DNA of 46,184 nt from an uncultured Bacilli bacterium. Its GTDB lineage: Bacteria > Bacillota_I > Bacilli_A > RF39 > UBA660. This document shows, piece after piece, positions 6,440 to 44,253 of this stretch. The translations under genes were made by a program, and so were the position numbers. The DNA is taken from the NCBI GenBank assembly GCA_947628915.1, contig CANRBR010000002.1:1-46184 (forward strand), read 5' to 3'. Each line of letters opens with the position of its first letter. Position 1 is the stretch's first letter. The notes beneath the pieces are model-generated. The model was not told the DNA's origin. It saw only the letters and a program-made list of their open reading frames with translations, and made no database searches.

Positions 6440-6895
6440 TTACATTTTATATATTTTTCTTTTGATTGTTTCATCTTCCATAGATTTTTCAAGTCCAAAC
6501 ATTTCATCAATATTGTAATCATCCTCTGAAAAATCTTCTATTATGTCTTCATAAGGGTATTCTCTAATGGTTGATAAATAAAAAGCTGCGTCGTCTACTA
6601 ATGCCTTTAAAAAAGCAAGCTCTTTATCATTTAATAAATCATTCTTACATGAAATATTTCGCATATTAAAATCGGTACACTTAGATATTTCATAATCACC
6701 ACTTATATTTTTCATTTTTTCATAATAAACTTTTGTTGCTATTTTTTTTGTATCTAACAAATCTTTTTCTTTTACATACTCAAATATGCTAAAAAGCACT
6801 TCTAATTCCTCTATATTATATTTATTGAAAAATATTTCTAATTCTTCATCATTCATGACTTTTTCATTATCATCCATATCTAATATTACAAACAT
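6440..6895 (-). CDS. Highly acidic hypothetical protein, third gene of the DinJ-Nudix/MazG operon
   Basis: 151-aa ORF beginning 2 nt after the MazG-like stop. D/E-rich, with no motif I recognise. Confidence 0.55.
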   Translation of the reverse strand: MFVILDMDDNEKVMNDEELEIFFNKYNIEELEVLFSIFEYVKEKDLLDTKKIATKVYYEKMKNISGDYEISKCTDFNMRNISCKNDLLNDKELAFLKALVDDAAFYLSTIREYPYEDIIEDFSEDDYNIDEMFGLEKSMEDETIKRKIYKM

Positions 6896-6897
6896 TT

Positions 6898-7200
6898 TTA
6901 TACTCCTTTTTTTACAAAAATACCATTTTTCTTTACATAAACTCTTTTGGCATTTTTTTCAATCTTATTTACAATTTCCTCTTCTAAATTTATTCCTAAT
7001 ATCTCAGATATACCCATTAAGTATATAGCCACATCTGCTAATTCTTCACCTAAATCATCTTTTTTATTTTCCCAAGCTGAATATGCCTCAGATAATTCAC
7101 CATATGCTAAACAAAATTCTACATTTAAATCTGTAACATTGAACCCTTTATTAACTTTATTTTCATACACTTTTTTCTGTAATTCTACTAAATCTATCAT
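6898..7200 (-). CDS. MazG-like nucleoside triphosphate pyrophosphohydrolase (small all-alpha type)
   Basis: 100-aa ORF with the metal-binding motifs YGELSEAYSAWE and LGEELADVAIYL typical of the MazG/YpjD-type fold. Confidence 0.8.
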   Translation of the reverse strand: MIDLVELQKKVYENKVNKGFNVTDLNVEFCLAYGELSEAYSAWENKKDDLGEELADVAIYLMGISEILGINLEEEIVNKIEKNAKRVYVKKNGIFVKKGV

Positions 7201-7201
7201 A

Positions 7202-7813
7202 TTAATCCTCCATTTCGTTTTTTTTGTTTCTATAATCTTCTATAAATTTTTTTATTAAAAATTTTGATAAAATGATATCTGCATCTGCCAAATCATAATC
7301 TAGTAATTCTTCTATATCAACCCATTTGTATTCAGAATGTATATTTAATTTAAAATCTCCTTTTATATAATCACATTCATATAATTTTAAATCTACTATA
7401 TGTCCAGGATATTCACATATGCTGTGAGTAATGTAATCCTTTATATTTGTTTCAATACCATATACTTCATCAAATGCCCTTTTTAATGTTTTTTTCTCAT
7501 CTTCAAGACCTACTCTTCGCCCTCCAGGAAATTCCCATTTACCTTTTAAATCATCATCCTTATTTCTTCTAGCTATCAAACATTTCCCATCTTTCATAAT
7601 TAATGCACATACGACATCTAATATTTTTTTATTTGGAACATTGTTTGTTATTTCAAAAGGTATTCCATTTTTTTTAACTACCTGTTTTAAAAATAAATTA
7701 ATAGCTGAACTCATAGATAAACCTAAATCCGTTAAAACCATAGTAGCTTCTTTTTTAACATTACTATCTACTTGTATATTAATAGCGCTAGTTTTGTTAT
7801 CCATATCTCTCAC
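7202..7813 (-). CDS. Fusion protein: RelB/DinJ ribbon-helix-helix antitoxin domain plus MutT-like Nudix domain with a degenerate Nudix box
   Basis: 203-aa ORF. Residues ~10-56 (INIQVDSNVKKEATMVLTDLGLSMSSAINLFLKQVVKKNGIPFEI) align with the DinJ N-domain. Residues ~65-190 contain GKWEFPGG. The Nudix box reads GGRRVGLEDEKKTLKRAFDEVYGI. Confidence 0.8.
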   Translation of the reverse strand: MRDMDNKTSAINIQVDSNVKKEATMVLTDLGLSMSSAINLFLKQVVKKNGIPFEITNNVPNKKILDVVCALIMKDGKCLIARRNKDDDLKGKWEFPGGRRVGLEDEKKTLKRAFDEVYGIETNIKDYITHSICEYPGHIVDLKLYECDYIKGDFKLNIHSEYKWVDIEELLDYDLADADIILSKFLIKKFIEDYRNKKNEMED

Positions 7814-13881: not shown

Positions 13882-14520
13882 TTATCTATATCTTTCAATC
13901 TCATTATCTTTAGCAAAGTTAGAAATTGCAAGGAAATTTTCATCATAGCCATATTTTTCTTGACCAAAAGATAACCACATTTTTTCCCATGTCTTTTCTT
14001 TTTCTAATAACCTTTGTACATTTGCATCATAGAAAGATTTATTATCTTCTTGCTTAGTTAAATCAACACATCCATCTTCTCCATAAAGTTTTGCTTGTAA
14101 ATCACATTCTAGTTTATCACAGTGGTGCGAAAAAAGGGCTTCTTTAGTTTTTCTTTCGTCAAATTCTAAATACAAACTTTCTATATCGCTTGAATTTAAT
14201 AATCCACTTAATATATTATGGACAGCTGCGTGTTCTATCTTTTCTTTTTCTTCTTTAGATATTTGAAATTGTGTTAAATCACCTATTACAGTTTCACCAA
14301 TTTCATGAATCGCAAGCATCATTAGAACTTTTTTAATATCTATATCATATTGATATTCTTTATAAATTGCTAGGGCAAGCATTTGAGTTGAATATACATG
14401 CTCTGCAACGCTTTCAAGTCTTTCCCTTTGAACATTCCAATCTTTCCAACCTGTTCTAATTAAGTTTTTTAATCTATTGCATAGTACATAAAATTTAATT
14501 ACATTTTCTTCTTTAGACAT
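13882..14520 (-). CDS. HD-superfamily hydrolase (YfbR-like 5'-nucleotidase type)
   Basis: 212-aa ORF with ESVAEHVYS and LAIHEIGETVIGD motifs. The usual HD dyad reads HE here. Confidence 0.65.
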   Translation of the reverse strand: MSKEENVIKFYVLCNRLKNLIRTGWKDWNVQRERLESVAEHVYSTQMLALAIYKEYQYDIDIKKVLMMLAIHEIGETVIGDLTQFQISKEEKEKIEHAAVHNILSGLLNSSDIESLYLEFDERKTKEALFSHHCDKLECDLQAKLYGEDGCVDLTKQEDNKSFYDANVQRLLEKEKTWEKMWLSFGQEKYGYDENFLAISNFAKDNEIERYR

Positions 14521-14576
14521 AATAACTCTCCTTATTTGTGTATTATTATAACAAATAAGAATTATAAAATCTAGTA

Positions 14577-15602
14577 TTAGTCTCTAAAATGTCCGAATTT
14601 TGCTCTTTCTTCGTAACACTCGTTCTTTAAGTCTAAATCTTTTATGATATTTTTTGGTTTACATTCTTCATATAAACTCTTATCTGCTTCAATATTACCC
14701 AAGTTTGTTTTAATATAAATAGCAAGTGGTTCTTCCATACCTATTGCATAAGATAGTTGTACTTCACACCATTTATATTTGTCATTAGATTTAACTATAT
14801 TCTTAGCAATTTCTCTTGCTTTATATGCAGCAGACCTATCAACTTTAGTTGGGTCTTTTCCAGAGAACGCACCTCCACCTACATTAGCAAATGATTGATA
14901 ACTGTCTACAACAATTTTTCTACCAGTTAAACCTGCATCTCCTTCAAATCCTCCTATTTCAAATCTACCAGTAGGATTTATTATGAAGTTTTCTACTTCT
15001 ATATTATATTTCTTACAAATATTAGTGCATATATCTTTTATAATACTATCAGTAGCTTCTCTATCCTCTTCTGTATTTTGATAACAAACAGTAAATGTCT
15101 TTATACCTACTAATTTATTATCTTCATCATAAATACCAGTTATTTGAGATTTACCGTCTGGTAAAAACCTTTTATCTTCCTTTCTTAATTCATCGTATGC
15201 CATACTTAATTCTTGAAGTATTACCATAGCAGTAGGTAATAATTTCTCTGTATCACGACAAGCATATCCAAACATCATTCCATTATCTCCCGCACCTCCA
15301 ACTTCATCGTTAGTTCCAAGTGCGATATCAGGACTTTGTTTTCCTATATTATCTATTATTTCATAGTCAGTTGAATATCCAATATCTTTTAGTACTCTTT
15401 TAGCTACTGATTCAACATCGACTTTTGAATTTGAAGTTACTTCTCCTGTTATAAAGATTTTTCCTTTTCCTCCTACAACTTCAATTCCACATCTTGAATT
15501 TTTGTCATCTTTTAAATAAGCATCAAGCAATGCGTCACTTATTTGGTCGCATACTTTATCTGGATGTCCTCTAAAAACTATTTCATTACTATAAAATTTC
15601 AT
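14577..15602 (-). CDS. metK: S-adenosylmethionine synthetase (short form, 341 aa)
   Basis: GHPDKVCDQISDALLDA, GAGDNGMMFGYA and GGGAFSGKDPTKVDRSAAY motifs. Start taken at MKFYSN (15602, SD AAAGGAAGG) rather than the track start at 15626. Confidence 0.9.
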   Translation of the reverse strand: MKFYSNEIVFRGHPDKVCDQISDALLDAYLKDDKNSRCGIEVVGGKGKIFITGEVTSNSKVDVESVAKRVLKDIGYSTDYEIIDNIGKQSPDIALGTNDEVGGAGDNGMMFGYACRDTEKLLPTAMVILQELSMAYDELRKEDKRFLPDGKSQITGIYDEDNKLVGIKTFTVCYQNTEEDREATDSIIKDICTNICKKYNIEVENFIINPTGRFEIGGFEGDAGLTGRKIVVDSYQSFANVGGGAFSGKDPTKVDRSAAYKAREIAKNIVKSNDKYKWCEVQLSYAIGMEEPLAIYIKTNLGNIEADKSLYEECKPKNIIKDLDLKNECYEERAKFGHFRD

Positions 15603-15631
15603 ACTACCTTCCTTTCTTTGTAACATCTCAC

Positions 15632-15752
15632 AAAAAAATACTCAAGATAACCTGAGTACGAAAGTTATCTTATAGATCTAGCTTTACCACCAAATTTAAT
15701 TGGTTGGTGTGACTTCATTGGGCTAGTCCCTCCATCACTCTTTATAAGATGT
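15632..15752 (-). promoter_or_regulatory. SAM-I (S-box) riboswitch with expression-platform terminator
   Basis: The minus strand reads UCUUAUAAAGAGUGAUGGAGGGACUAGCCCAAUGAAGUCACACCAACC...GGUGGUAAAGCUAGAUCUAUAAGA, matching the S-box core. It is followed by the hairpin AAGAUAAC/GUUAUCUU and a U7 run, immediately 5' of metK. Confidence 0.85.
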
Positions 15753-15759
15753 TAACTAA

Positions 15760-15788
15760 ATTATAGCACATATTAAATTATAATACAA
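15760..15788 (-). promoter_or_regulatory. Predicted sigma-A promoter of the S-box/metK operon
   Basis: TTGTAT-17 nt-TATAAT on the minus strand, ~7 nt upstream of the riboswitch P1 stem. Confidence 0.5.
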
Positions 15789-15801
15789 TAAGTTGTAATC
15801 T

Positions 15802-15972
15802 TTAATATGTAAATCGATCATTCTTTTCTAAATCCTCAAATAATTCTTCAATATTATTATAACTTTTATACTTTTCTGGATGTTTTTCCATATCTACTAA
15901 TTCTTTAAAGGTTTCTTCCAATTCCTCTAAAGTAAAATATTCTAATAAATCAGTTTTTTCTAAATTTAACAC
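15802..15972 (-). CDS. Possible small acidic protein (56 aa, GTG start)
   Basis: Not in the ORF track because it is under 60 aa. AGAGGTGGA SD lies 5 nt before the GTG. Translation: (M)LNLEKTDLLEYFTLEELEETFKELVDMEKHPEKYKSYNNIEELFEDLEKNDRFTY. No family recognised. Confidence 0.3.
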   Translation of the reverse strand: MLNLEKTDLLEYFTLEELEETFKELVDMEKHPEKYKSYNNIEELFEDLEKNDRFTY

Positions 15973-16084
15973 ATTTATCCACCTCTATGTTAATTATACT
16001 ATTTGTAAAACTTTTTGTATAGATATATAACCAATATACCAGCATTTGCAAAGTTGAGATTAATCAATCGTATATAATATCACA

Positions 16085-16216
16085 ATAAAACAGAGTGGAA
16101 TTAACACTCTGTAATTTTAGCGTTATTTGCCTTGGTGCGACGCTAACACATAGCGCTTACCTACAATAATGTAAATTTAATAAATTTACGGCGCATAACA
16201 AGGACTTACTGATAAC
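16085..16216 (-). ncRNA. Candidate ~130-nt structured small RNA downstream of the DUF3800 gene
   Basis: Bounded by a consensus promoter (16251..16223) and the terminator hairpin CAGAGUG/CACUCUG plus UUUUAUU (16111..16084). Locally GC-enriched, with internal hairpins, no SD-led ORF and three GUGUUA motifs. Confidence 0.45.
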
Positions 16217-16222
16217 ACCATT

Positions 16223-16251
16223 ATTATATTATGCATTTTTTTAAATGTCAA
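16223..16251 (-). promoter_or_regulatory. Consensus sigma-A promoter (TTGACA-17-TATAAT) driving the candidate sRNA
   Basis: Minus strand: TTGACA (16251..16246), 17-nt spacer TTTAAAAAAATGCATAA, TATAAT (16228..16223). Confidence 0.55.
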
Positions 16252-16279
16252 TACATATTAAGATTAAATTTCAACTCGT

Positions 16280-16975
16280 TCATTTTATTGGGAAAAAGAA
16301 CTCCCCTGATATATATTTTTCTATTTTCATTTTATTAATTTCATCGGAAAAACAATTATTTGAAATTAAATTTGTATAATAAATATTAGAAAATACATCT
16401 GCTATTTGTATTAATTCTCTGTTTTCAGATTGACAATATTCAACATAAAATTCTTCTTGGATATGACTTCCTGTAACTAATTCTGTATTTAAATATTCAC
16501 CTAATGTTGACCTTGTTTCAGTTCTAACATTCCTCTCATCAATAAATAGATAGTTTTCTTTGACAGATATTTGTTTATTCTTAGTAAAATGTTCAAAGCT
16601 TAATTTTAAAAGATAATTAAATGCTCTTGCAGTATTATTATAAAAATAATCTTTGACTTTTTTATTGTCACATATAATATAATATATTTCAAATAATTCA
16701 TTTTGGCAAAAGAAGTTGACAAATTTTCTTTTCATATTAGCATTGAAACAATTCCCTTTTAATTCTTTAAATTTCCCATTATCATAGAACATTTTATTTT
16801 CTTTATCCATCTTTTTTAAATTGTTAAAATTACTGCTTATAAATCTTTTAAAAACTCTTTTTAATTTATCTTTATTTTTAGGCATTATAATACAGATGAC
16901 AAAATATTTGTTTTTGTAATAGTTTAGATATTTTTTAGTCATACTTCCAGATTCATCTATATAAAATGTGTTAAT
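16280..16975 (-). CDS. DUF3800 family protein. The coding region extends 5' of the track ATG, with a probable non-canonical ATT start
   Basis: The track ORF is 16280..16942. In frame just upstream are the codons ATT AAC ACA TTT TAT ATA GAT GAA TCT GGA AGT, giving INTFYIDESGS. This is the family-defining N-terminal DES motif, and the QxxD motif is present as LIQIADV. A TGA lies at 16981..16979. Confidence 0.7.
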   Translation of the reverse strand: MNTFYIDESGSMTKKYLNYYKNKYFVICIIMPKNKDKLKRVFKRFISSNFNNLKKMDKENKMFYDNGKFKELKGNCFNANMKRKFVNFFCQNELFEIYYIICDNKKVKDYFYNNTARAFNYLLKLSFEHFTKNKQISVKENYLFIDERNVRTETRSTLGEYLNTELVTGSHIQEEFYVEYCQSENRELIQIADVFSNIYYTNLISNNCFSDEINKMKIEKYISGEFFFPIK

Positions 16976-17094
16976 ACTTCACCACCACCAATAAGATTAT
17001 ATCATATACTGATAAATATTATCTATAAATTAAACTATTAATTTAAATTTTTTTTGTGTGTGCTACAAAATATTTTAACGATACTCTTAATAAC

Positions 17095-17127
17095 GAAAAA
17101 ACCTAGAAATATCAACAATTTCTAGGC
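17095..17127 (-). terminator. Intrinsic terminator of the rplM-rpsI operon
   Basis: 9-bp stem CCUAGAAAU/AUUUCUAGG followed by a U6 run on the minus strand, 18 nt after the rpsI stop. Confidence 0.7.
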
Positions 17128-17144
17128 TTTTAAAACTGTAAAAA

Positions 17145-17558
17145 TTAACGTTTTGAGAATTGAGGTGCACGACGAGCAGCTTTTAAACCTGGTTTCTTAC
17201 GTTCTTTAGCTCTTGGGTCACGAGTAACAAGTCCAGCTTTCTTTAATATTTTTCTATAACTATCTTCGTTTGCTTCATTTGCCTTATCATATTCAAGTAA
17301 AGCACGAGTTATACCTAAACGGATTGCTCCTGTTTGACCGCTTGCTCCACCACCAGATACTTTAACTTCTATATCGAAAGTGTTTTCATTATTTGTAGCT
17401 ACTAAAGGTTGTTTTAAATCCATTACATAAGTTGCATATGGCATAAATTCATTAACATCTACACCATTAACAGTTATTTTACCACTTCCAGCAGTCATTT
17501 TAACTTGAGCAATTGAAGACTTTCTTCTTCCTGTTCCTATAAATACTTTCTTTGCCAT
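17145..17558 (-). CDS. rpsI: 30S ribosomal protein S9
   Basis: 137-aa ORF with GTGRRKSSIAQV near the N-terminus and the C-terminus ...KKPGLKAARRAPQFSKR. Confidence 0.97.
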   Translation of the reverse strand: MAKKVFIGTGRRKSSIAQVKMTAGSGKITVNGVDVNEFMPYATYVMDLKQPLVATNNENTFDIEVKVSGGGASGQTGAIRLGITRALLEYDKANEANEDSYRKILKKAGLVTRDPRAKERKKPGLKAARRAPQFSKR

Positions 17559-17569
17559 GTCTTCCCTCC

Positions 17570-18004
17570 TTATTTAACTTTCATTTCTACTGGCTTTTGT
17601 GCCATATGAGGATGTTCACTACCCTCATAAACAAATAATTTCTTAATTACTTGTCTACCTAATCTAGTGTGAGGTATCATACCTTTAACAGCTCTTTCAA
17701 TCATCTCAACTGGATAATTTTCTCTCATCTCTTTTGCAGTTCTTTCTCTTAATCCTCCAGTATAACCTGAATGGTTATAATAAATTTTATCTTCTAATTT
17801 ATTTCCTGTTAGATTAACTTTTGAAGCATTAATTACTATTACATAATCTCCACAATCGATATGTGGTGTGTAAGTAGGTTTATGCTTTCCGCGTAAAACA
17901 TCTGCTACTTTAGTTGCTAGGCGTCCTAAACTAACACCTTCAGCATCTATAACATACCAATTACGCTCTACTGTTTCTTTTTTTTGCATAAATGAATTTT
18001 TCAT
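17570..18004 (-). CDS. rplM: 50S ribosomal protein L13
   Basis: [18 protein letters not shown] is characteristic. Start set at [10 protein letters not shown] (18004, SD GGAGAAAGG). The track's 24-aa 5' extension lacks an SD. Confidence 0.95.
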
Positions 18005-18081
18005 AAATTTTTCCTTTCTCCAATACATATAGCAAGTTTTCCCAAGACTTACTAAATGTGGGATTAAATGTACCAACTAAA

Positions 18082-18110
18082 ATAATACTAAAAAATACTA
18101 AAAAAGTCAA
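18082..18110 (-). promoter_or_regulatory. Predicted promoter of rplM-rpsI, followed by a ~70-nt leader
   Basis: TTGACT-17 nt-TATTAT on the minus strand. The leader at 18005..18075 could be an L13-type autoregulatory leader, which I cannot verify. Confidence 0.45.
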
Positions 18111-18147
18111 TAAAAATATATTATTTTATTAACTTTTTATTACTATT

Positions 18148-19152
18148 TTACTCAAAATAATCAAGTTTCATATTCTCTCTTACACGCTTCATTACTTCTT
18201 CTGCTTTTTTCTTTGTTGCCTCTGTACCTTCTTTTAATATTCTATCTACTTCATCAGGTCTATCTTCATAATATTTACGTCTCTCTTGTATTGGTTTTAA
18301 AAATTCTATAATATTACGAGCAAGTTCTTTTTTACAAAATACACAGCCTCTTTCACCCTTTTTACATTCGCTGCACACATCCTCTATATTTGGATTTTTA
18401 ATTAATTGGTGGTAGTAATATACCATACAAATATCAGGATTTGCAGGGTCATCTTTTCTAAGTTTATTAGGATCTGTTTTTGCGTCCATTACTTTTTTAG
18501 TAATAGTTTCCTCATCATCTGATAAATATATGCAGTTGTTAAGTGATTTACTCATTTTCTCATTTCCATCTAAGCCTTTAATTCTAGGATTTTTACTAAG
18601 TACTGCTTCTGGAACATTAAATGTATCTCCATATATTTTATTAAACTTCCTAACTATTTCTCTTGCTTGTTCTAGGTGTGGCAACTGGTCGTCTCCAACA
18701 GGTACTATATTTGCATTAACACATGCAATATCTGCTGCCTGAGATACTGGATAACCTAAAAATCCATAAGTAATACTTTCCCCATCGTTACCAAATAATT
18801 CTTTTTTTTGAGCAACTTCAAACTTAGTAGTCGGATTTCTAAATAGACGAGATACTGACACTAAATTAGAAAAGTATACTGTTAGTTCTGCTGTTTCAGG
18901 AATAAGTGATTGAATATATATGTGTGATTGTTTTGGATCTATTCCAGCAGCAAGATAATCAAGAGCAACTTCACGGACATTATCTCTAACTTTCTTTGGA
19001 TTATCAAAGTTATCTGTAAGAGCTTGAACATCTGCTATTAATATATAAGTATCATAATCATACTGCATCTTTACTCTATTTTCTAATGATCCGAAATAGT
19101 GTCCTAAATGAAGTCTTCCCGTAGGTCTATCTCCTGTAAGTATCGTTTTCAT
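18148..19152 (-). CDS. trpS: Tryptophan--tRNA ligase
   Basis: 334-aa ORF with HIGH-type motif GRLHLGHYFG, KMSKS, and a Cys cluster C242/C260/C263/C270/C273. Confidence 0.95.
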   Translation of the reverse strand: MKTILTGDRPTGRLHLGHYFGSLENRVKMQYDYDTYILIADVQALTDNFDNPKKVRDNVREVALDYLAAGIDPKQSHIYIQSLIPETAELTVYFSNLVSVSRLFRNPTTKFEVAQKKELFGNDGESITYGFLGYPVSQAADIACVNANIVPVGDDQLPHLEQAREIVRKFNKIYGDTFNVPEAVLSKNPRIKGLDGNEKMSKSLNNCIYLSDDEETITKKVMDAKTDPNKLRKDDPANPDICMVYYYHQLIKNPNIEDVCSECKKGERGCVFCKKELARNIIEFLKPIQERRKYYEDRPDEVDRILKEGTEATKKKAEEVMKRVRENMKLDYFE

Positions 19153-44119: not shown

Positions 44120-44253
44120 CTTGTATCCTCCCTTCGCCTATATCCAGTATAGACATGCTCCGTGTAAAAACCCAATACTAAGGTTATTTTATATTGCAAC
44201 TTAACCTGGTGTATCAGCAACCTCACACATCAACGCAACGTCACACATATTGA

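Follow-up and report, generated by a model that had tools for sequence, protein, structure and literature searches.

A Covarying RNA beside a DUF3800 Gene of an Uncultured Bacilli Bacterium: Probable Partner of a Predicted RNase HII-like Protein

Introduction

The window analysed here is the whole of a 46,184-nucleotide stretch of DNA from an uncultured Bacilli bacterium (contig CANRBR010000002.1 of assembly GCA_947628915.1). On its minus strand, directly behind a gene of the DUF3800 protein family, lies a region that had been proposed from the letters alone to be a gene for a small structured RNA tied to DUF3800. Sequence comparison supports this central interpretation of the original prediction: covariation is found in the helices, the promoters are conserved, and each of the 91 copies adjoins a DUF3800 gene on its strand. 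The feature is very likely a real partner RNA of DUF3800 and a member of a family that we call closed-P1, with the long-range helix P1 closing the molecule.

RNAs associated with DUF3800 genes were described in 2017 as showing signs of a sophisticated biochemical function, for which no hypothesis was offered (Weinberg et al., PMC5737381), and our literature search found no later paper that settles the function of these RNAs. The protein recurs in RNA-linked immune settings, namely in type VII retrons, in Cas12a2 and Cas12a3 loci and in a Cas13-associated operon. What is added here is a well-populated sister fold, the rules of its layout and natural tests of the partnership, given by co-loss in one relative and by tandem copies in others. 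The closed-P1 family shows a gap in Rfam 15, and the findings turn "function unknown" into a testable model of DUF3800 and its RNA.

Results

The structured core of the RNA spans positions 16119..16219 and matches the family model R2 from end to end with 83.5 bits (E ~2e-18); here and below, window coordinates of the RNA, its signals and the neighbouring genes refer to the minus strand. The match covers model positions 1-81 and is the only one in the 46-kb window, so that no second RNA copy was found there by the R2 scan; the window sequence is part of the R2 seed, and its match to the model is therefore given by construction. Fold statistics were obtained from a MAFFT alignment of 56 distinct sequences which was fitted to no structure (A6). 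Over the five helices P1, P2, P2b, P3 and P4, 92.2% of the cells are paired and compensatory changes occur in 22 of 25 pairs. The covariation score amounts to 0.566, compared to 0.224 after shuffling (0 of 500 shuffled sets reach the observed value) and 0.07-0.14 in slid controls. RNAalifold independently gives the same helices and keeps the inner five pairs of P1.

The alignment shows an architecture in which P1 closes the molecule, a junction CAGUAAGUC follows, and a nested P2-P2b domain holds P3, an invariant UAA and P4. P1 pairs the 5' strand GGUGUUAU (16212..16219) with the 3' strand AUAACGCU (16119..16126), the latter containing AUAAC as the counterpart of GUUAU (16216-16212). All eight pairs exhibit compensatory changes, and only the inner five, beginning at 16216, are well supported; the helix reads GUGUUAU/AUAACGC in the window and GUGUCAA/UUGACAC or AUACCAA/UUGGUAU in relatives. 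Since model R1, which collected the relatives, contained no P1, the covariation of this helix is an independent finding. The junction CAGUAAGUC (16203..16211) is near-invariant, with A10, G11, U12, A14, U16 and C17 unchanged in all 56 distinct sequences, and its last C opens P2. In P2, CCUUG (16199..16203) pairs with CAAGG (16134-16130); 94% of the cells are paired and four of five pairs show compensatory changes. P2b, formed by UGCG (16192..16195) and CGCA (16139-16136), shows them in 4/4 pairs, the 3' strands of both helices (16130..16134 and 16136..16139) being placed by covariation. P3 (16160..16191) consists of CC at 16191-16190 and GG at 16161-16160 and is 100% paired. The subsequent segment (16140..16159) comprises the invariant UAA (16159-16157) and P4, with GCGCUA (16156-16151), the loop UGUGU (16150-16146) and UAGCGU (16145-16140); P4 is paired in 99% of the cells with compensatory changes in five of six pairs, and the UAA-P4 segment is the part common to Rfam DUF3800-I. 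In most family members the length from P1 to P1 is exactly 81 nt, and the invariant positions cluster in CAGUAAGUC and GGUAAG.

In the clade of the window the P3 loop contains an insert, a 20-nt hairpin of GUAAAUUU (16189-16182) with AAAUUUAC (16178-16171). It covaries inside the clade, reading GUAAAUUC/GAAUUUAC in L012 and GUAUU/AAUAC in L020 (L numbers denote related loci), and is missing from L004, L008 and every compact 81-nt member. Of the two internal hairpins contained in the original prediction this one is real but clade-specific, whereas the second, UUAGCGU/ACGCUAA, can be drawn and is not conserved, relatives having an uncompensated ACACU. The latter was rejected together with the helix UGUUAU/AUAACG from the minimum free energy (MFE) structure: in these helices substitutions on one side (at the ACGCU position, G to A in 8/9 clade members; U to A in L009) are not compensated on the other, and both compete with the covarying P1 and P4. 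Two further assignments had to be revised. CCUUG/CAAGG had been regarded as a possible pseudoknot and is actually the nested covarying helix P2, and AUAAC, previously taken for a linker, turned out to be the P1 3' strand that closes the molecule with GUUAU. An Rfam-style 5' hairpin, as used in R1, was dropped once the relatives showed the 5' segment pairing with the 3' end. A pseudoknot between UGU of the P4 loop and the ACA before GUAAG was judged by eye and also discarded, as C-to-A variants (L044, L034) occur without a compensating change in the loop.

The DUF3800 stop codon is located at 16282-16280, and the -35 hexamer of the RNA's own promoter starts 28 nt downstream. The consensus scan finds TTGACA (16246..16251), a 17-nt spacer and TATAAT (16223..16228), exactly the promoter that had been described at 16251-16223; it is the sole 12/12 consensus site within 14000-18500. 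Three nucleotides lie between the -10 hexamer and the first possible P1 pair. The outer three pairs of P1 are its weakest, being 61-77% paired, in keeping with a start 6-7 nt past the -10 hexamer. From the promoter geometry and from which P1 pairs covary we infer a transcript start at ~16217-16216 and an end within the U-tract; the earlier estimate of ~16216 agrees with the covariation, the well-supported P1 pairs beginning at this position. The predicted primary transcript thus delimited by promoter geometry and covarying P1 pairs (16084..16217) would have ~130 nt. At its 3' end the hairpin reported before is present as a Rho-independent terminator (16084..16112), made up of the stem-loop ACAGAGUG-UUAAUUC-CACUCUGU at 16112-16090 and then UUUAUU to 16084.

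Base composition and coding content were likewise described correctly in advance. In 100-nt windows the G+C content is 0.33-0.35 across the RNA and 0.18-0.25 in the flanks, and the 101-nt RNA core reaches 0.39. Open reading frames (ORFs) of at least 30 aa are absent from the RNA strand inside the transcript; at a cutoff of 20 aa only a 24-aa plus-strand ORF and a 21-aa ORF starting in the promoter appear. The MFE of the RNA is -31.6 kcal/mol, with z = -2.86 versus shuffled sequences. The attribute "stand-alone" holds with regard to the RNA's own promoter and terminator, but no terminator is found between the DUF3800 stop and the RNA, and the transcript of the gene should run on through it. The RNA should hence be a separate transcription unit and yet also part of the DUF3800 transcript.

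These signals recur in the family. Among the 75 distinct copies with enough upstream sequence for promoter scoring, 65 have at least 10 of the 12 positions of the sigma-70 consensus and 55 an exact TTGACA; the spacer measures 17 nt in 66 copies, and in 60 exactly 3 nt separate the end of the -10 hexamer from the first pair that P1 could form. A terminator-like hairpin follows 3' of the RNA in 66 of the 75. AT-rich genomes give many promoter-like matches (38 observed in the scanned region, 28.5 expected), and one may ask if promoter-like and terminator-like signals merely coincide by chance in an AT-rich spacer of the window that encodes no functional RNA. This explanation is refuted by the retention of the unit in ~90 loci, with partner protein identity down to 40%, and by compensatory changes in all five helices, which leaves it a practically negligible probability.

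Being small and, by prediction, independently transcribed and terminated, the RNA could also act as a regulator that base-pairs with the DUF3800 mRNA or with other mRNAs. We consider this very improbable. There is no conserved complement of GUAAG near the DUF3800 start, CTTAC and ACTTAC each occurring in 1 of 74 start regions, and a fold this compact and heavily covarying, with invariant junctions, is what one typically sees in RNAs that bind proteins or ligands.

The partner gene (16280..16975) encodes 231 aa and is assigned to DUF3800 by Pfam (PF12686, E 6e-6). The listed ORF, 16280-16942, starts at Met12. Upstream of this residue the frame reads INTFYIDESGS, relatives begin with MNTFYIDESGS, and a ribosome-binding site GGTGGTG is found ~9 nt ahead of an ATT codon; because of these three features the true start is very probably the ATT at 16975-16973, with an in-frame TGA two codons further upstream. 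ATT or ATA starts recur across the clade of the window. The start position is occupied by ATT or ATA in L001-L004, L006, L007, L009, L014, L017 and L018 and by ATG in L005, L008, L011 and L012. Gene callers truncate the protein at Met12, by which the DESG motif is lost. A promoter-like site for the gene itself, TAGATA-18-TATAAT with TG (16996..17025), comes from the consensus scan only and lies after the rpsI terminator (17131-17097).

The AlphaFold2 model of the protein, calculated with a 36-sequence alignment, exhibits a mean pLDDT of 91.6. Its best PDB matches are archaeal RNase HII enzymes (E 2e-5 to 3e-4, TM ~0.45-0.5), and an RNase HII-like fold is predicted. Published modelling of DUF3800 agrees with this fold (PMC7736814, PMC10910872). 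The conserved residues D7-E8, D146-E147 and Q190..D193 are intact in the window protein, with the acidic motifs kept.

Relatives were collected with two covariance models, R1 from the window clade without the closing helix P1 and the improved R2; E-values from both are rough. Loci were gathered mainly via the protein, and tests of the association in the opposite direction, from RNA to protein, covered only viral contigs and the window. Ten GTDB genomes of uncultured Bacilli have the gene order rplM-rpsI-DUF3800, and nine of them carry the RNA directly after the gene with 79-96% identity and both promoter hexamers conserved; promoter, RNA and terminator are kept in these nine, while the spacer from the stop codon to the -35 hexamer diverges. 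A profile scan of metagenomes supplied a further 80 loci, for whose choice a DUF3800 homologue of 40-79% identity was the sole criterion, and R1 detected the RNA in 69 of them. With R2, 91 copies were located in 95 related sequences. All of them adjoin a DUF3800 gene on its strand, 79 downstream and 12 upstream. Downstream copies lie at a median of 56 nt from the last aligned DUF3800 codon, too near to the stop for a terminator in between. The upstream loci inspected by eye offer no room for a second promoter between RNA and gene; promoter, RNA, terminator, ribosome-binding site and gene follow one another in L040, L064, L075, L050, L025 and L030, and L076 is without the terminator hairpin between RNA and gene.

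Extra full-length copies, in tandem or flanking the gene, were found in at least seven loci, and several copies have their own promoter. The two-copy loci are L207, L022, L024, L041, L084, L025, L108, L109 and L111. In Phosphitispora fastidiosa (L207; GCA_019008365.1), two tandem copies (6727-6806 and 6881-6961) are situated after the DUF3800 gene, downstream of dnaG-sigA. An exact-pattern scan of viral contigs for the closed-P1 family gave 30 matches with four true copies; all four sit beside a DUF3800 gene, and three of the loci (L108, L109, L111) have a tandem RNA pair. In L205 (6001-7539) a thymidine kinase gene (6807-7421) lies between the DUF3800 gene and the RNA (7457-7539), i.e. the pair tolerates an inserted gene. 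tRNA genes were noticed near family copies in L020, L041 and L075.

With the filters switched off, R2 also matches, weakly but over its full length, sequences immediately behind distant DUF3800 genes in published genomes of phages and satellite phages. They were found in Listeria phage LP-030-2 (JX120799.2; L202 2246-2349, ~18245-18348 in the phage; 19.8 bits) and in the Streptococcus satellite phages Javan529 (L204 2230-2332; 27.7 bits) and Javan555 (L203 2272-2352; 16.9 bits). The matches occupy unannotated gaps, and the closing helix, UAGUAAUUC and GUAAGC...GUCGC are present. About 600 nt downstream of the LP-030-2 DUF3800 gene the Listeria small RNA (sRNA) rli48 was detected as well (L202 2795-2943; 176.8 bits).

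The constant strand of the RNA, together with the missing terminator between the gene and a downstream RNA, which makes the RNA part of the mRNA, would be in accordance with a cis-acting element of the 3' or 5' untranslated region (UTR) that DUF3800 binds and through which it autoregulates the stability or translation of its own mRNA, with no role in trans. We rate this as quite improbable. A near-consensus promoter directly upstream in 65/75 copies, fixed 3 nt from P1, would be pointless for a purely cis-acting element; moreover, the RNA is found both upstream and downstream of the gene, in L205 with a thymidine kinase gene in between, and is present in extra tandem copies, several with a promoter of their own.

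With regard to the Rfam DUF3800 motifs, the original prediction had named them without a decision on fit and had proposed an Rfam scan and an alignment of homologous DUF3800-flanking regions. The alignment yielded the conservation and the covariation in five helices described above. In the scan, no family of Rfam 15 appeared at curated thresholds at the window locus, and none in 20 family loci; in 18 further family loci no DUF3800 family appeared at E up to 10. The best relevant match, from a permissive scan of 401 nt, is DUF3800-I (RF02969), which aligns over the whole model with 20.3 bits compared to a gathering cutoff of 44.2. Fit to the known motifs is thus confined to the core shared with DUF3800-I, no threshold being reached. 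The match has an E-value of 0.89 over 4227 families and of ~2e-4 for that single family; since the neighbouring gene singles out DUF3800-I beforehand, the latter value is usable, as a lead and not as membership.

For comparison, viral contigs were searched with the DUF3800-I consensus pattern. Matches are abundant, in contrast to the four true copies of the closed-P1 family, and 18 of 20 loci scanned pass the Rfam cutoff; the genuine DUF3800-I RNAs of these 18 loci score 55.6-103.3 bits on RF02969. In L198 (802-996) a genuine DUF3800-I RNA at 802-925 abuts a tRNA gene at 924-996. R2 in turn matches three true DUF3800-I RNAs over model positions 17-70 only (24.6-27.3 bits, E 7e-4 to 4e-3). The reciprocal similarity is restricted to the 54-nt P2-P2b-P3-UAA-P4 core, in which helix lengths and junctions are identical: P2 of 5-6 bp, 2-3 nt, P2b of 4 bp, P3 of 2 bp with a small loop, UAA, and P4 with 6 bp from GCG and a 5-nt U.U loop, from which the chain leads straight back into P2b and P2. 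Both RNAs also share a C.GUA motif ahead of P2, adjoin a DUF3800 gene on its strand and on either side, and are followed by a Rho-independent terminator.

The periphery differs. Immediately ahead of P2, DUF3800-I possesses a local 5' hairpin (uaCaG...CuGua) with a paired CuGua, whereas the window RNA has the long-range P1 and the CAGUAAGUC junction; the Rfam alignment of the window 5' segment to this hairpin is poor and mismatched. In DUF3800-I the terminator abuts P2, whereas in the window RNA it begins 17 nt past P2, beyond the P1 3' strand and a linker, and Rfam misaligns the DUF3800-I terminator onto this segment. DUF3800-I can lie in either orientation (PMC5737381), in contrast to the 91/91 co-oriented copies of the closed-P1 family. 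The partner proteins of the two RNAs are very distant as well: those beside true DUF3800-I RNAs match a hidden Markov model (HMM) of the window subfamily only with E-values between 1e-10 and 2e-4, and a BLASTP alignment is confined to the C-terminal Q..AD region. As the genuine DUF3800-I RNAs flank such a distant subfamily, RNA type tracks protein type.

Given a score below the cutoff, similarity only in the 54-nt core, a different periphery and distant proteins, the window RNA is therefore filed as a sister variant of DUF3800-I and not as a member, uncatalogued in Rfam 15. It might instead be a divergent true DUF3800-I RNA for which the Rfam model is too narrow; DUF3800-I is after all the best Rfam match over the full model length, the core layout is the same, and R2 meets true DUF3800-I RNAs at exactly that core. 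With 20.3 bits far from the range of true members, none of 20 family loci at any cutoff and no DUF3800 family in 18 more at E up to 10, a covarying long-range helix in place of the 5' hairpin, a terminator not abutting P2 and partner proteins that BLASTP aligns only in the neighbourhood of the C-terminal Q..AD motif, we hold this classification to be rather improbable. DUF3800-II to -XI are associated with DUF3800 genes too, with a recurrent UAA and in several cases a terminator thereafter (PMC5737381). The window RNA shares this genomic association, and none of these other motifs was found at E up to 10 in the 401-nt locus scan or at gathering score in 20 family loci; for DUF3800-XI, the presence of which in our Rfam copy is unconfirmed, an overlap is possible if its model is missing. 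Since the sister fold (~90 copies) shares only the 54-nt core with DUF3800-I, the comparison points to this core as the likely protein-recognition element.

Around the pair, Pfam assigns a class I tRNA synthetase of the W/Y type (18148-19152), rplM for ribosomal protein L13 (17570-18076), rpsI for ribosomal protein S9 (17145-17558) and, on the other side, metK for S-adenosylmethionine (SAM) synthetase (14577-15626). Upstream of metK, Rfam detects a SAM-I riboswitch with a much shortened P4 arm (15667-15750, 67 bits), and a terminator-like hairpin (15659-15638) lies between riboswitch and metK. The other genomes that share the gene order have no such metK block behind the RNA. An ORF of 56 aa (15802-15972), situated between the terminator of the RNA and the riboswitch, starts with GTG behind a good ribosome-binding site, GAGGTGG, and a promoter-like site (16021-15993). 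It has no Pfam match and is not conserved in related loci; a weak PADLOC match to PbeC (E 0.0055) was judged insignificant. Far from the pair, an S10-Clostridia ribosomal protein leader was found at 44134-44241 (36.1 bits, gathering score 35.1).

Discussion

We tentatively favour, at somewhat less than even weight, a two-part module in which the RNA would bind the DUF3800 nuclease directly and keep it inactive, similar to the RNA antitoxins of type III toxin-antitoxin and abortive-infection systems. RNA present in excess would bind DUF3800 and neutralise the predicted nuclease. The layout should maintain this excess: every transcript of the gene would carry the RNA, as its 3' part in the window and as its 5' part in the upstream loci, the near-consensus promoter would supply further RNA, and the protein would start at a weak ATT codon. 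An excess of RNA is suggested by just these features, i.e. the common strand, the RNA on every gene transcript, the strong RNA promoter and the weak protein start. If the RNA were no longer made, or were broken down, as might happen when a phage takes over the cell, free DUF3800 would cut nucleic acid.

Support for an antitoxin-like module comes from the strict co-orientation, the ToxIN-like layout of the upstream loci, the tandem copies and the co-loss in L010, a locus with the same gene order that is without the RNA and in which the DUF3800 gene is a pseudogene of four or more frame fragments (L010 2961-3642 and downstream). Several points weigh against it. Toxicity, nuclease activity and RNA binding of DUF3800 are predicted only, and the PADLOC defence models give no match to the protein. 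The antitoxins of classical type III systems consist of short tandem repeats that the toxin processes, whereas this RNA is usually a single unit of 81-130 nt. In the window clade the pair sits stably after rplM-rpsI and appears to be vertically inherited, and the other chromosomal contexts are mostly housekeeping and not defence islands. The association was measured mainly from protein to RNA, and ~10 loci have an intact DUF3800 homologue with no RNA within 2 kb, among them L031, L043, L060, L063, L066, L069 and L087-L089. No alternative Rfam RNA was found in the 10 RNA-less loci, and no DUF3800 family at E up to 10. The DUF3800 genes of the L087 group (L087, L060, L066, L069, L088, L089) are 97% identical to that of L058; compared with L058, an inversion-like rearrangement has its breakpoint right after the stop codon (~2665), and the RNA is gone from the 2-kb flank. 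In view of this rearrangement, absence within 2 kb is no proof of absence from the genome, and the RNA may lie elsewhere.

The L010 co-loss fits a cofactor model equally well, and the same applies to strict pairing and co-orientation. In the most serious alternative the RNA is an obligatory subunit, be it scaffold, activator or specificity element, and DUF3800 would be active only in complex with it, much as other nucleases of the RNase H fold work with nucleic-acid partners. The near-invariant single-stranded CAGUAAGUC and GGUAAG resemble a surface for protein binding, the type of RNA follows the protein subfamily, and the chromosomal contexts are stable and housekeeping-like. A guide-like variable single-stranded segment is nevertheless missing, the variable stretches being paired (P1, P2, P2b, P4) or short linkers, and neither an excess of RNA nor a weak start codon is needed for a 1:1 enzyme. 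Overall, we regard an obligatory subunit as unlikely, though it comes nearest to the antitoxin-like module.

A generalisation, which is possible though doubtful, is that DUF3800 proteins and their flanking RNAs form a widespread class of RNA-controlled RNase HII-like nucleases, acting as a new kind of type III-like toxin-antitoxin or abortive-infection module. If this is true, unrelated or core-related RNA folds (DUF3800-I, closed-P1 and others) would each restrain their own nuclease subfamily. The window locus would then be a chromosomal, vertically kept example, next to the versions in the cultured host Phosphitispora fastidiosa, a Listeria phage and Streptococcus satellite phages.

Known RNA-protein systems resemble the pair to different degrees. 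A guide RNA of the TnpB/IscB omega RNA or CRISPR RNA (crRNA) type is not recognisable, as no variable unpaired guide is found in the family and variable segments are paired or short linkers. The location also speaks against a riboswitch or 5'-leader role, 79 of 91 copies being downstream of the gene; in the window, the RNA is followed by its own terminator, and a separate promoter-like site precedes the next ORF.

ToxIN systems are arranged as promoter, RNA, terminator and toxin gene; the ToxI-type repeats of ~36 nt are cut out by the toxin, the fold of which differs from the RNase HII-like DUF3800. Such antitoxins are made of several repeats, which together with the toxin form a cyclic complex (PMC8860590). 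In common with them, the RNA described here is paired with a predicted nuclease, most inspected upstream loci have the order promoter-RNA-terminator-gene, and some loci have extra copies. As regards a ToxIN-type layout, 12 of 91 copies are upstream of the gene and six of those inspected have a terminator in between, whereas the window RNA lies downstream. In contrast to ToxI, there is usually one unit of 81-130 nt with its own promoter and terminator, mostly downstream, and the protein is RNase HII-like; a type III repeat array was not found, the window having a single copy and the extra copies elsewhere being full-length units.

DUF3800 is known as an accessory domain or protein of type VII retrons, with an RNase H2-like fold by modelling, and is there likewise tied to a structured non-coding nucleic acid encoded alongside (PMC7736814). 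Among the Pfam-assigned neighbours of the window DUF3800 gene no reverse transcriptase is found, the non-ribosomal ones being a class I tRNA synthetase, metK, an HD protein and a GDPD protein. The retron DUF3800 is without the Q of the QxxD motif, whereas the window protein has QIAD. DUF3800 furthermore accompanies Cas12a2 and Cas12a3 (PMC10910872, PMC13594972) and is encoded in a Cas13-associated operon (bioRxiv 10.64898/2026.08.25.746378).

The closest functional parallel is provided by the abiF motif. The abiF motif RNA RCd22 of Clostridioides difficile is reported to neutralise the toxic AbiF by direct binding in cis and in trans, in the manner of a type III antitoxin (bioRxiv 10.1101/2025.04.15.648962). 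RNA fold and protein, an Abi_2 protein with links to Cas13 ancestors, are unrelated to those of the window, and the function shown there is inferred for the window pair. The abiF system likewise has a conserved gene-associated RNA motif beside its partner protein, which makes it the best functional precedent for the proposed neutralisation of DUF3800 by its RNA.

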